From NCBI GenBank assembly GCA_964016885.1, contig OZ024755.1, positions 10,850,001-10,914,000 of the forward strand: a DNA stretch of 64,000 bases. The letters run 5' to 3'. The stretch's first letter is position 1. Each line of letters begins with the position of its first letter. Positions 19,075 through 60,619 of the stretch are shown here, in pieces. The notes beneath the pieces were generated by a model. The model worked only from the letters and a program-made list of their open reading frames with translations, was not told the DNA's origin and did no database searches. Made by a program: the position numbers and the translations under genes. Source of the stretch: Eledone cirrhosa (lineage: Eukaryota).

Positions 19075-19190
19075 GAAAACAGTACTCAATACCGAAGTAG
19101 AGTTTAAATATTCATTTATATTAAAGGTAAAAAGTGAGTCTTCTTACACTTGAGTTTCAACTCCAGAGAAACAAGACTCACTTTTGAATA
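19075..19190 (-). mobile_element. Truncated fold-back element of the hammerhead/Penelope-like family
   Basis: gtactcaatac..gtagagt terminal motif shared with 28837 and 32290; 13-bp inverted arms aaaagtgagtctt/aagactcactttt; GAAA retained, CUGANGA lost. Confidence 0.45.
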
Positions 19191-19919
19191 TATGAATATA
19201 TATATATGTGTGTGTGTGTGTGGGTGGGTGTGTGTGTGAGTGCGTGCGTATTAAATTTGAACGAGTCAATGGTGAAAAGAAAAGGCATACGCTGTTTAAC
19301 GTTCTTTTTATTTGCATATATTTTTTTTTTGTAAAGTGCGCTATTTATAAATCTAGATATATTGGCAGCCATTAAAAACAACATATTGACATTTATTTAA
19401 TGAATTGATGTCGTTCCAAGTTTACCCTATTATATAATGTTCCACAGTGCAACCACAATTATCACAATTATCACTGATTACATCTCAGTTACCCACGCGC
19501 AGACACATACCCAACGGTACACATACACCGCAGTTATCCGTAACGACAATGTCCCTTATTATAATCTTTTGTGTCTGTTTCTCTCTCTCTCTATATATAT
19601 ATATATATATATATATAATATCGTATGTATGTATGTATATCATATATATATATAATATCGTATGTACACACATTTATATTGTATATATTTATATATATAT
19701 GTACGTGTCTTTGTGCATGTATGTGAAGGATGGGGTATTATTGGGTGTGTGCCTGTGTATTTAGCAATCATTGAATGCTATTGTAAGATGGTTTGAATCG
19801 ACCTTGGTAGTAAATTGCAATCGATAGTGCAACCTAGGAGAATTCTATTATACCAGCCACTACAACAGACCATTGGGTATTGCAAATAATGGTTATCATT
19901 ATACCATTAACAGCGTACA

Positions 19920-20200
19920 GATTTCATATATATATGTATATATATATATATATATATATATATATGTATATATATATATATATATATATATATATAAATA
20001 TATATATATAAATATATATATATATATATATTTATAAATATATATATATAAATATATATATATATATATATATGAATATATATAAATATATATATATATA
20101 TATATATATATATATATATATATATATATATATATATATATATATATATATATATATATATATATATATATACATATATATATATATATATATAATGTGC
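19920..20200. repeat. (TA)n microsatellite
   Basis: Read directly. Confidence 0.95.
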
Positions 20201-20479
20201 ACACATCTGTGGGTGTATGTATATATATAAACGCTACAATCATCATAAATGCCATCAGCAGCGCTATTATTATCATGATCATCTGCATCATCATCATTAT
20301 CATAAGCATAATCCTCCTCATCGTCAACAATGACTAGAACAACAACAACAGCAACTACTACTACTACTACTTAGAAGCAAGCAAACAGAACTCGATCGAA
20401 GGGCAGAACTCACTGGGATGGGAGAGTTTAAATTAGAGATAGCAGTGAGAAAAAGATAGGCCATGAGAGAGGTAAAGAA

Positions 20480-20605
20480 AGTGTGTGTGTGTGTGTGTGT
20501 GTGTGTGTGTGTGTGTGTGTGTGTGTGTGTGTGTGTGTGTGTGTGTGTGTGTGTGTGTGTGTGTGTGTGTGTGTGTGTGTGTGTGTGTGTGTGTACGTGT
20601 GTGGT
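20480..20605. repeat. (GT)n microsatellite
   Basis: Read directly. Confidence 0.95.
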
Positions 20606-23169
20606 AGACACGGAACACCAGAGAGATACAATATTAGACGAGAGGTAGACCAGATTGGACAGAAAGAGAAGTTTGAGAGATGAGTTGTAGCTAGATTGAA
20701 GAAAGATATAGACATAAATATAAGGTGTATTCTTTGTATGTGTGGTATATATTAGAGAGAGAGCGAGAGAGAGACAGAGAGAGAGAGAGAGAGAGAGAGA
20801 GAGAGTAAGTGAGGGAGACATTGAAAACAAAGACAAAGACTAAAACATACACGAAATATGATGCATCACAACCAATGCATTTTGGTAGTTGTTGGCATTA
20901 CCACTACTACTACTACTACTACTACTACTACTGTTACTACTACTGCTGCTGCTGCTGTTGCTGCTGCTGCTACTACTACTATTACTACTTCTACTACTGC
21001 AGACCTTTAATAATAGCAGTAATAATATGCAAATATAGATGAGCATACCAACATATATGAGTGCATGTATAAATATATATATGTGTGTATGTGTGTGTGT
21101 GTGCGCGTGTCTGTCTAGGTATATGTGCGTGTGTGGCTTAAATGTGCCTCCAGTACCAATAGGTCTGCCTAACTATATTGGTAGATCTGTGTGTATGTAT
21201 GTCAGTCTGTACTTGTAAGTGAGCCTTTCGTAAACAAATAATATATGGTACGCAATATGAAAAAAAATGTATATATATATATATATATATATATATATAT
21301 ATGTATGTATGTATGTACGTATGTATAATATGGTACGCAATATGAAAAAAAAATAATAACGCTAATATATATATATATATATATATATATATATATATAT
21401 ATATATATATATATATATATATATATATATATATATATACATGATATGATATATATATTTCTATATATAGATAGATATATACATAAGTATCTCTCTCTCT
21501 CTCTCTCTCTATATATATATATATATATATATATATATATATATATATATATATATATATATACAGGCTATATATATATATATATAACATAGCAATATGA
21601 AAATAAAAAGAAAGATAGGAAATACCAAATGAAAAAACTCTAGAACCATACGCAATTTAGTAAGCTAAACTCGTATGATTTGCCATCAAGACAATTGCAA
21701 TCGATTTTCTTCTTCTAATGTAATAGTCTCTACTGGACACTATCCACATTAGTGGTCGACATTGATCTGAAATGTTATAGATCTGTTTGGTAAAAGTTCC
21801 TTCTCTGCATCCCACTTTATTGTGTGCTCCCTTCATTTCTTAGTTTTCTTTGGCCATTATCAGATTTTAGTATATATTTCTTCATTTCTTCATTTCTTGC
21901 TTTTTCTAGTATCCCTCCCTAAGTAAGTAATCATATAATAGATTTAGTTATACGATGTATTTGTTTTTACATATATACATATATATACCTTTGTGTGTGT
22001 GTATATGTGTGTATATATATATACATATATATGTGTGTGTATATGTATATATATATATATATATATGTGTGTGTGTATATGTATATATATATATGTGTGT
22101 GTGTATATATATATATATATATATATATATGTTTTGTTTCCTGTTGTTTAATGTTGTTTTTTATCCCGAGTTTCCGAACCCCCGCTGTACACCATTATTT
22201 CTCTTATCAATCTGTGTACTGTAGTGCAAAAGCTGCTTCACCATTATCGAACCAATGATATATATATGTATATATATATGTGTGTGTGTGTGAGAGACCT
22301 GCATGCATTTTATGAATTCATAGACCACTAAATGCTCTTATCCACGTCAATACACACATACTCACACATACATACACATACATATACAGATATATTTATC
22401 TTACAAAAGAGAGACGCTTGCAAGTGCACACATATTGCATATAAACACATACAAACAACCAGTGTTTATATATGAATCTACCTACACGCAATAATCCACA
22501 TATTGTGACTATATAGAAATACTCATATCTAGATTCAGCCAGACGTACTCACATATACAGTCACATGACATGTGTATATAAGAAATAATATATGTATGTT
22601 CTTCAAGGCATATAGACCCACATACAATCACGCAACGCATACATTTTAGTTCGTATACATATTTACAGACATATACAGCAAGGGATGCCCTTGAAGGCGA
22701 GCAATAAAGTATCATCCTTGTATATAAATTTAGACGCATTTATACGGACACATACAAACACATCGATGGTTGAGAAAATCTTGCATGTATGTGTAACTGT
22801 GTGTGTGAGAGAATGTGTCTGTGTGTGAGAGAGATATATACACACACGCACATATATATATATATATGGAGAGAGAGAGAGAGGGGGAGAGAGAGAGAGA
22901 TAGAGATAGAGATAGAGATAGAGATAGAGAGAGAGAGAAGAATAGCGCGAGTTATTAAGAGTTTTTATAACACAAAACTGAATTATTCTATTTTGTCATA
23001 TTAGGACATTTCCCAACTCTCCCACTTTCGCTCCATTAGTACTTACAGGCTTTTTTCTATTTTCTTCCATGAATCCGGCCCATTTACCTCACGGGGTTGT
23101 CTGAGTACGGATATTTTCTTCGCGTATTATTCCTGGATAGTTGAAGACTCTTCAAGAGAGCCGTATAAA

Positions 23170-23530
23170 TTAGTCGGCAAAATGTGGGTAGAATAAAGAA
23201 TTGTGGTGCAAATCCTGAGTTAACAGGTAGATAAATTGGTAGATAAAACAGGGTGTAAAACTTTATTAAGAGGTCTGTATATAAACTATGGGTAAAATAG
23301 TGGGTGAAATAGTGGGTAAAATGATGGTTAAAGTTGTGAATGTGTCTAAAAAGAAGGGCGAAATGAAGACTAAAATTTCACATTGTTGGGTAAAATCAAA
23401 AATCCTGGGTAAAACGGTGGGTAAAATAGTAGGCAAAATCGTAAAACGTTGCAGAATGGTGTGTAAATTATTTTGAAGGGTGAAATCCAGAACCACTGAT
23501 AAAATGCTGGGTAAAATGGTTGTAATTTTA
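23170..23530. repeat. Degenerate ~12-bp periodic repeat (GGGTAAAATNNT)
   Basis: gggtaaaatagt gggtgaaatagt gggtaaaatgat; gggtaaaacggt gggtaaaatagt aggcaaaatcgt. Confidence 0.65.
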
Positions 23531-59362: not shown

Positions 59363-59500
59363 CAATGATATTAAATAAATGGAAATTATATTTATAAAAC
59401 CATATTAAATATAGTTTCCATTTATTTAATATCATTGAATATTATACTCCAGAAAAGTGTCGAGTGCTCTGAATCAGTTATAAACATTTATATTTGTTGA
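59363..59500 (+). mobile_element. Truncated fold-back copy of the hammerhead element (ribozyme lost)
   Basis: ~32-bp arms caatgatattaaataaatggaaa../..tttccatttatttaatatcattg followed by tactccagaaaagtgtcgagtgc..tcagttataaa. Confidence 0.7.
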
Positions 59501-59836
59501 ATTACCAATATCTCTTCCGCTTATACATATATATATATATAAACCAATGAAATTACTTCTCGAAAAACCTGGCATTTCGAGCCACTTTTTCCATATAAAA
59601 CAAGTAACATTCAGAGACCAACCAGATGTGAGAAAAACCACAGACCCTCCATCTCAACTCACCTTTTGAAAAGCAGAAGAACTGCGAAACCGGTAAAGGA
59701 ACCAAATAAATATATATATTTTTTAAAAAAATAAGACTCCAGTTGCATTTTCGATTTCATCTCTTTTTCTTTATATATATATATATATATATATACAATA
59801 TTAAATAAATGGAAACTATATCTATAAAACCATATT

Positions 59837-59902
59837 TATTTCATTATATATATTTCAGGGATAACATATTAACAATATGCTATGCCTTCCTCAGACAAAA
59901 TA
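59837..59902 (-). ncRNA. Type I hammerhead ribozyme (minus-strand arm)
   Basis: Mirror of 59960-60025 with one substitution in helix II. Confidence 0.75.
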
Positions 59903-59959
59903 CAATATAAACAGTTATATAAATGTCGAATCTATTTATCTATAAAACTGTTTATATTG

Positions 59960-60025
59960 TATTTTGTCTGAGGAAGGTATAGCATATTGTTAATATGTTA
60001 TCCCTGAAATATATATAATGAAATA
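59960..60025 (+). ncRNA. Type I hammerhead ribozyme
   Basis: Helix I tattttgt/atgaaata, CUGAGGA 59968-59974, helix II aggtatagcatatt/aatatgttatccct (13 of 14 pairs), GAAA 60006-60009, palindromic helix III AUAUAUAU, predicted cleavage after 60017. Confidence 0.8.
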
Positions 60026-60619
60026 AATATGGTTTTATAGATATAGTTTCCATTTATTTAATATTGTAAATATACTCCAAATATTTGTCGAGTGCTTTTA
60101 TATCAGTTATAAATATTTACTAGTTGTAACACAACAATTTTAAATATAACTTTCCATATATATATATATATATATATATATATATATATATATATATATA
60201 TATATATATATATATATATATATATATATATATATATATATATGTGTGTGTGTGTGTTTGTGTGTATACATATATAGAGATGGTTGCATATGTTTGTATC
60301 TATAAGTTCGAATATATATACATACATTGCACAATATATGAATTACGTTTTATAGATATCTATACATTTATGTGATGTGAACAAAGGACACAAATGAAAG
60401 GAGGAATGTGGCTAGAAATTGTAGAAATGTTACTGAAATTGTAAAACTGTAGAGCGCAGCTGAGGTTTACTGTAGGGTGCAGCTGAGGTTTAATGTCCAT
60501 CCAAAGGTGCGGAGTTTCCCCAATCACATCTCTATTTATTTTTCGCCCCCTTTCTCCCACTGCTTGTAAATACTTACCTTCAGTTACTGGGTGCAATATA
60601 GACGAGTGATAGAGAAGTT

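Follow-up and report, generated by a model that had tools for sequence, protein, structure and literature searches.

A bulged stem-loop at the tail boundary of hammerhead-bearing, probably Hydra-type Penelope-like elements in Eledone cirrhosa

Six short dispersed elements, at 19075, 28830, 32195, 41709, 59363 and 59794, lie in a 64,000-nucleotide (nt) stretch of Eledone cirrhosa DNA (contig OZ024755.1 of assembly GCA_964016885.1, positions 10,850,001 to 10,914,000 of the forward strand, here called the window). A sequence-only reading had assigned them one layout of a hammerhead ribozyme, an AATAAA-like stretch, a mini-hairpin (TACTC/GAGTRC), an inverted 5' end and a (TA)n target. The question raised by this locus is what the hairpin is, and what it does beside the ribozyme. 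The copies are likely the 5'-truncated 3' ends, inserted into (TA)n, of Hydra-clade Penelope-like retroelements or of non-autonomous derivatives of these. The hairpin is part of a bulged stem-loop situated where the tail of each insertion begins, and it probably serves the reverse transcriptase (RT) of such elements as a recognition or start signal.

The motif ACTC-N11..14-GAGTRC (a pattern chosen post hoc) is found six times in the window; 0.44 are expected, and none of 100 shuffles gave more than 3. All six matches fall at the six named copies, so the mini-hairpin proposed for every one of them is indeed present. The insertions and the features of the best preserved one are as follows.

13069-13193, minus strand: copy absent from the sequence-only reading; (TA)n, fold-back, GCTC/GAGC stem-loop at 13115-13138, 70-nt tail, (TA)n
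19051-19196, minus strand: fold-back with a remnant of the hammerhead 3' half; stem-loop 19082-19103; tail 52 nt
25276-25436, minus strand: weak candidate copy, not established; (TA)n, a stretch like a hammerhead 3' half, long-looped stem-loop
27157-27217, minus strand: copy absent from the sequence-only reading; damaged group B hammerhead core, (TA)n on both sides, no tail
28824-28929, minus strand: group B copy, no fold-back; damaged core at 28929; stem-loop 28836-28857; tail 34 nt
32195-32345, plus strand: group B fold-back; damaged hammerhead core in the inverted arm (32248, minus); stem-loop 32289-32309; tail 57 nt
41711-42114, minus strand: family A insertion; hammerheads at 41898 (minus) and 42016 (plus); stem-loop 41771-41792; tail 82 nt
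59363-59527, plus strand: family A insertion; short fold-back, truncated below the hammerhead; stem-loop 59446-59467; tail about 81 nt
59796-60156, plus strand: family A insertion with (TA)n on both sides; inverted arm 59796-59916 and sense arm separated by a 29-nt junction, then the tail
59837-59902, minus strand: hammerhead of the preceding insertion in its inverted arm; core at 59894; predicted cleavage after 59845
59960-60025, plus strand: the same hammerhead in the sense arm, complete, type I; core CTGAGGA at 59968; predicted cleavage after 60017
60074-60095, plus strand: stem-loop of the same insertion, opening its 82-nt tail; E 0.02 in the covariance model described below

The three family A copies (59794, 41709 and 59363) show 82-85% mutual identity (85% between 41709 and 59794), and the group B copy 28830 is about 60% alike to them. 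Five of the named copies are fold-backs, as had been read, with 28830 as the exception. In these five, and in the copy at 13069-13193, a 5' truncation is adjoined by an inverted truncated copy, a trait of endonuclease-positive (EN+) Penelope-like elements (PLEs); the two arms at 59796-60156 are identical in 122 of 123 positions. All six fold-backs have a tail on one end only (tails in the window are 34-82 nt, counted from the stem-loop start). Contact with (TA)n, also asserted for all named copies, is observed on at least one side of each (6/6), the tail of 32195 passing through (TC)n first. A single abutment is weak evidence, because (TA)5 occurs within 90 nt of a given side at ~13% of random window positions; the exact junctions are stronger, and insertion into (TA)n, a Hydra-clade trait, is seen at junctions both in the window and in sequencing reads. 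Direct pseudo-long terminal repeats (partial tandems) are absent from the window and present in the relatives L095 and L157 described below. Head-to-tail units with a hammerhead each, the retrozyme trait, are likewise absent, the window copies being monomers or inverted pairs.

Metagenome contigs were scanned with a Hydra-type hammerhead pattern that does not contain the hairpin; these loci and the sequencing runs stood in for host-genome-wide enrichment. The scan gave 122 stretches from 17 of 64 parts, with 125 hammerhead matches, 78 of which pass a helix filter (structured) and 70 of these have at least 90 nt downstream. RCTC-N10..20-GAGYRC is located downstream of 25 of the 70. On the reverse strand it is seen once, upstream in 2 of 78 cases, and at none of 91 viral matches (which include no structured hammerhead and served as the negative control). 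The conservation of the hairpin below hammerheads, expected from the window, thus extends to the metagenome relatives. A looser motif is found at 31 of the 78 hammerheads, 40-71 nt past the cleavage site, in 20 clusters, and for a further 14 (TA)n begins within 80 nt (at 34-52 nt in 12 cases).

The hairpin description given earlier was correct as to conservation and incomplete as to form, the actual fold being a bulged two-stem structure. It comprises a 4-bp lower stem (RCTC/GAGY), a 2-nt 3' bulge (TT in 17 of 20 clusters, TC in 3), a covarying upper stem, and a variable loop; the spacing of the half-sites varies widely among the relatives (8-21 nt). An upper stem of at least 3 bp follows the bulge in 15 of the 20 clusters (shuffle mean 1.5, maximum 7, 5,000 shuffles), while alternative 3' bulges of 0, 1, 3 and 4 nt give 0, 0, 0 and 2 of 20, and a 1-nt 5' bulge gives 6. 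In the alignment 97.5% of cells are paired, and 13 cells carry double-sided changes (0 of 500 shuffles, and above all slid controls), a statistic that may be inflated by relatedness and by the selection for CTC/GAG. Among 60 cells, 45 are Watson-Crick, 8 G-U, 1 A-C, and 6 other; the 8:1 ratio of G-U to A-C favours a folded sense strand (RNA) over duplex DNA. Across seven window copies, whose upper-stem sequences differ, pairing holds in 20 of 21 upper-stem cells; folded singly, 3 of 7 short window fragments take the bulged form, which also appears in a 236-nt fold. By comparison of sequences, a real, conserved and covarying RNA structure is thus well supported, with the sense strand indicated by the wobble pairs.

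A covariance model built from the 20 metagenome representatives only (with a rough calibration of E-values) was applied to the window. Its top matches (E 0.0001-0.1) are 19075 (0.0001, the best), 59363 (0.0008), 41709 (0.004), 59794, 32195 (0.03) and 13100 (0.1, within 13069-13193). Weaker scores are obtained for 25276-25436 (E 0.37) and 28830 (E 2.5), and nothing at E<=1 on the 91 viral loci. An Rfam search of eight relatives' loci returned Hammerhead_1 twice in L095 and nothing over the stem-loop at gathering level.

The position of the stem-loop is as characteristic as its fold. Two classes of 3' ends are observed, a short one 0-10 nt before the stem-loop and a long one 34-82 nt after its start, and inverted arms always use the short end (6/6 fold-backs). 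Inverted-arm homology stops at -4 to +1 of the stem-loop start in the same six, the true arm ends lying up to ~10 nt before it because TA repeats extend the alignments. Relatives without a tail also stop a few nucleotides before the stem-loop (L188 compared with L128, L131 with L096, and the two repeats of L095, of which the upstream one continues into the stem-loop and the downstream one ends in (TA)n just before it). No exact block of at least 25 nt of inverted arm was found upstream of the 78 metagenome hammerheads, where short contigs may break. The 5' untranslated region (UTR) of L095 and L137 opens with the stem-loop in two copies. Such tandem pairs are located at L095:108-205, L137:4842-4935, L136:2289-2389 and L202:51-149, in full-length or tailed elements, and would suit a dimeric protein.

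Four of 11 sequencing runs were placed on 59925-60160 (236 bp). Matches comprise 3,833 contigs in X1, 676 in X4, 15 in X5 (which has another organism label), and 30,651 reads in X9, a reduced-representation data set, so that its counts are not copy numbers. The inferred abundance of the system is therefore real for at least one family, judged by the X1 contigs. In X9 the change to (TA)n comes at 60074, the first position of the stem-loop, in 5,383 reads, and at 60058 in 1,423. The variants listed for X9 at 5% or more include five loop or bulge positions and no stem position.

The hammerhead, thought to be part of every copy, is complete in two of the six (41709 and 59794, in both arms of each); of the others, two have damaged cores, one a 3' remnant, and one none. 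In the ribozyme at 59960-60025 helix I has 8 bp, helix II 13 of 14 pairs, and helix III is palindromic. The two complete copies thus show the Hydra-clade trait of a canonical type I hammerhead near the 3' end, with predicted cleavage. A strict type I descriptor finds three arms only (42016 plus, 59968 plus, 59894 minus), and the fourth (41898 minus) has one helix II mismatch more. Between 42016 and 59968 both partners have changed in three helix II pairs, and N7 (59972) is the only core position among the variants listed for the aligned reads and contigs. Copies 32195 (32248 minus) and 28830 (28929 minus) retain CTGATGA...GAAA with helix I pairing not above 1 bp, and the copy at 27214 retains the core and forms no helix I. 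In 19075 a remnant resembling the 3' half is recognised by eye, and 59363 begins below the ribozyme. The group B hammerheads at 27214, 28929 and 32248 (all minus) lose pairing exactly at the helix I 5' strand, as would be expected of a preference for truncation immediately upstream of the core. An Rfam search of 59790-60156 gave no hammerhead at E<=10, and one of the whole window only microsatellite-driven microRNA noise among the best 150 of 342 matches. AATAAA, suggested as a conserved signal, occurs in family A and finds no support in the relatives (AATAAA or ATTAAA in 6 of 32 clusters, 3.9 by shuffle, p=0.19).

The protein behind these ends can be sought in the relatives. Where a hammerhead has at least 500 nt upstream, that sequence is homologous to the open reading frame (ORF) of L095 and L137 in 24 of 35 cases, 21 on the same strand. 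Both ORFs (704 and 721 amino acids, aa) have RWK, DKT and YRDD, with CxCX5C in L137 only. The YIG word is present in the relatives' ORF, a nuclease domain being not confirmed by Pfam. Among 8,000 scored candidates 2,846 are relatives of this ORF. Pfam and PDB sequence searches did not recognise it, and the best fold match to the L137 protein model (predicted local distance difference test, pLDDT, 85.8) is telomerase RT (E 5e-8). As judged from the modelled fold, full-length relatives carrying the stem-loop encode a telomerase-like RT. L095 also contains, at 2600-2988 on the minus strand, an ORF-less direct repeat of 267 nt with a hammerhead (Hammerhead_1 above gathering) and a stem-loop with a 6-bp upper stem, its short end entering the same (TA)n as the full-length element; it is a candidate non-autonomous Hydra-type retrozyme. 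Two boxes in it, which we take to be tRNA-promoter-like A and B boxes, may be mentioned; ARAGORN finds no tRNA in L095.

By analogy with a related system (PAc, below), we give a probability of about 0.6 to the stem-loop acting in the element RNA as a binding and initiation signal for a telomerase-like RT/GIY-YIG protein. The protein would bind the stem-loop, which would position the start of reverse transcription, and would nick the (TA)n target. Priming of cDNA just upstream of the stem-loop would yield a copy without a tail, and a second start beyond it (further 3') a tailed copy. If both strands of the target primed cDNA and the two truncated products were joined head to head, a fold-back with one tail would result. 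Hammerhead cleavage is predicted, likely as a dimer because helix III is palindromic, and would not necessarily be required for insertion. A wider proposal, which we hold tentatively and at rather less than even odds, is that throughout the clade the Hydra-type RT recognises its RNA, and the boundary of its template, by this so far undescribed stem-loop. The stem-loop would set the short start, which would explain the one-sided tail, and with the hammerhead it would form a minimal cassette of ~130 nt mobilising very abundant non-coding derivatives into (TA)n.

Several observations count against this RT-signal reading or the clade assignment beneath it. The motif is carried also by 5 of the 45 matches that fail the helix filter, and 33 of the 78 structured hammerheads lack both the motif and any (TA)n within 80 nt. 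The upper stem had first been spotted by eye in the same sequences, so the shuffle test is confirmatory and not blind, and CTC/GAG is uninformative on structure because it never varies and was part of the selection pattern. No Penelope ORF remnant was detected in the window by hidden Markov models (HMM) and tblastn with 17 pieces of the relatives' ORF, as the sequence-only reading had noted, and we infer the clade membership of the window copies, since no ORF is linked to any of them. No autonomous partner of family A was found in the collections searched, which were other than animal genomes (its pattern has 0 matches in the viral and prokaryote collections). The window tails (34-82 nt) mostly exceed the 30-40 nt published for PLEs. 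The family A hammerhead lacks the T..T signature and the AC...GT helix III of most listed Hydra hammerheads, and is unlike that of Hydra-1_oBim. The PAc analogy is loose because PAc RT starts inside an AC-rich loop, whereas the window short end precedes the stem.

Alternative explanations have to account for the same boundary. We regard it as quite unlikely that the motif acts as DNA, either as the part of the tail recognised by GIY-YIG (homing into the element's own repeat) or as an internal promoter element. The invariant CTC/GAG resembles protein half-sites, the 5' UTR opens with the motif, and in Drosophila Penelope the tail is needed for endonuclease recognition (as cited in PMC11167929); yet the half-sites stand 8-21 nt apart, the upper stem covaries, and G-U exceeds A-C by 8:1. 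Somewhat less improbable, and still a minor candidate, is an RNA signal of another kind, for translation control in the 5' UTR, 3' processing, stability, or the steering of hammerhead folding. The tandem pair just upstream of the ORF in L095, L136, L137 and L202 would agree with such a role, as would the resemblance of helix III in many relatives (ACTC-n-GAGT) to the stem. Against it stand the position of the stem-loop, which marks a DNA insertion boundary within ~10 nt across unrelated families, and its retention both in family A, whose helix III has quite another sequence, and in the ORF-less 267-nt repeat of L095; moreover, the ends have no poly(A) tail and AATAAA is not enriched.

Family A may instead be a dedicated non-coding, retrozyme-like element with ribozyme-made circles and a borrowed Hydra-type RT, a possibility with perhaps one chance in a few that is compatible with the stem-loop acting in reverse transcription. 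The very many variants in the runs of organism A with a conserved ribozyme core, the compensatory helix II changes between 41709 and 59794, and the ORF-less repeat with hammerhead and stem-loop in L095 all fit it, and retrozymes have been proposed to descend from Penelope repeats (bioRxiv 10.64898/2026.07.22.740005, in part). However, head-to-tail tandems are absent, the window copies being monomers or head-to-head fold-backs; an autonomous element heavily truncated at its 5' side would look alike, and the 236-bp stretch compared with the runs cannot show sequence further upstream. Coincidence, in DNA rich in AT and in microsatellites, has almost no probability left as the source of the common layout. 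There are 234 (TA)5+ runs in the window, four of the six hammerheads are damaged or absent, and family A and group B are only ~60% alike; against this stand the motif excess, the metagenome enrichment, and the upper-stem and covariation tests, and a chance layout is refuted by the independent model search of the window and by the read junctions.

Under the RT-signal reading the stem-loop would bear on two open questions, the choice of RNA by Penelope-like RTs (among retroelements the nearest kin of telomerase) and the one-sidedness of the tails; one clade has been tested in vitro. Template recognition is directly testable, because the structure is compact, natural compensatory variants exist, its position is at the tail boundary, and L095 and L137 have intact ORFs of ~700 aa. 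The stem-loop sits at that boundary in elements of many animals, and offers a sensitive annotation marker for short, highly diverged Hydra-type remnants.

Other repeats accompany these copies in the window. A perfect 108-bp palindrome without loop (46245-46352), beside (TG)n(TA)n and lacking both hammerhead and stem-loop motif, could be either a fold-back formed recently or an artefact of assembly. Imperfect fold-backs at 4095-4156 and 24558-24846 have neither the motif nor flanking (TA)n. A short inverted-repeat element lies between TA runs at 48787-48860; its ends resemble Tc1/mariner inverted repeats, and we presume a miniature inverted-repeat transposable element (MITE). The broken remnant of a long interspersed element (LINE), presumably RTE-like, lies at 13818-15205 and retains a domain of the apurinic endonuclease type (Pfam PF03372, E 2e-7). 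The broken reading frames at 39727-40461 (minus strand) include a 154-aa piece without Pfam match, and we take them for a DNA transposase remnant. A dispersed family like short interspersed elements (SINEs), 110-260 bp long with 72-97% identity, is present at 4743, 6355, 33557, 34029, 35370, 41096, 44359, 52221 and 57276, and a second dispersed family at 13383-13779, 29576-29731 and 32619-32999. A long tandem array at 52739-55230 has open frames on both strands with low-complexity translations.

The closest known system is the Hydra clade of Craig et al. 2021 (PMC8557442; this and the other papers compared here are represented by parts of their text). Its elements have a canonical 3' hammerhead, (TA)n insertion, and a single ORF with RWK, DKT, a CxCX5C linker and GIY-YIG at the C terminus. 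An inverted 5' copy and a one-sided tail of 30-40 bp are described there as general PLE traits. The window elements share with the clade the 3'-end hammerhead, the (TA)n target, 5' truncation, the inverted 5' copy and the one-sided tail, and differ in having no ORF and an outer pair that is mostly A-T instead of G-C. Most Hydra hammerheads listed in File S2 have the form ctga.gat...tgaa ac..gt near the 3' end with a (TA)n target, and the group B cores share the first part of it. In the six new published Hydra consensi, inspected by eye, the motif follows the hammerhead in Hydra-2_Amil and Hydra-2_Ajap (GCTC...GAGCAC), and a variant does so in Hydra-1_Crog. The other three end ~30-40 nt past the cleavage site, and Hydra-1_Ajap among these begins with the motif twice. 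Among the supplement matches listed, one outside the Hydra set resembles the motif, most others being in apparent coding sequence.

In the main text of PMC8557442 the term stem-loop was not found, and the sections covered do not mention the motif; nor is the stem-loop mentioned in the available parts of PMC7229834, PMC3846280, PMC8967140, PMC6962438 and bioRxiv 10.64898/2026.07.22.740005. A description was found neither in the literature searched nor in Rfam (Repbase, Dfam and subscription journals lay outside the scope).

The Naiad clade, which occurs in Octopus (PMC8557442), has the (TA)n target, inverted 5' copy and tail in common with the window elements; it lacks a canonical hammerhead, whereas that of family A is complete. 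Animal non-LTR retrozymes (PMC7229834; bioRxiv 10.64898/2026.07.22.740005) are alike in their short non-coding units, type I hammerhead and kinship to Penelope terminal repeats, and are defined by head-to-tail tandems and circular RNA, in contrast to the monomers or tailed inverted pairs of the window. Opposite-strand hammerhead pairs 100-700 bp apart, with a dimer-type helix III, were reported by Cervera and de la Pena 2014 (PMC4209133). In the green anole element PAc (Poseidon clade; Frangieh et al. 2024, PMC11167929) the protein nicks AT-rich DNA on both strands, cDNA starts internally in a stem-loop, two start sites bound the tail, and in vitro the hammerhead need not cleave. The window elements resemble it in the hammerhead upstream of a two-ended tail and in the AT-rich target, which would likewise be cut and extended on both strands, with an internal RT start at a stem-loop. 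PAc is of another clade, and its stem-loop is AC-rich, within the ORF and itself a start site, while that of the window is non-coding and begins just past the short end.

In general, Penelope-like ends with hammerhead, inverted 5' copy and (TA)n target were recognised correctly in the sequence-only reading, and they are very probably of the Hydra type. The system is not new: it matches the Hydra clade of PMC8557442, including Hydra-1_Obim of Octopus bimaculoides, and the window elements are new families of a described kind. They are ordinary repeats of that group, and the novelty lies in the apparently undescribed stem-loop.

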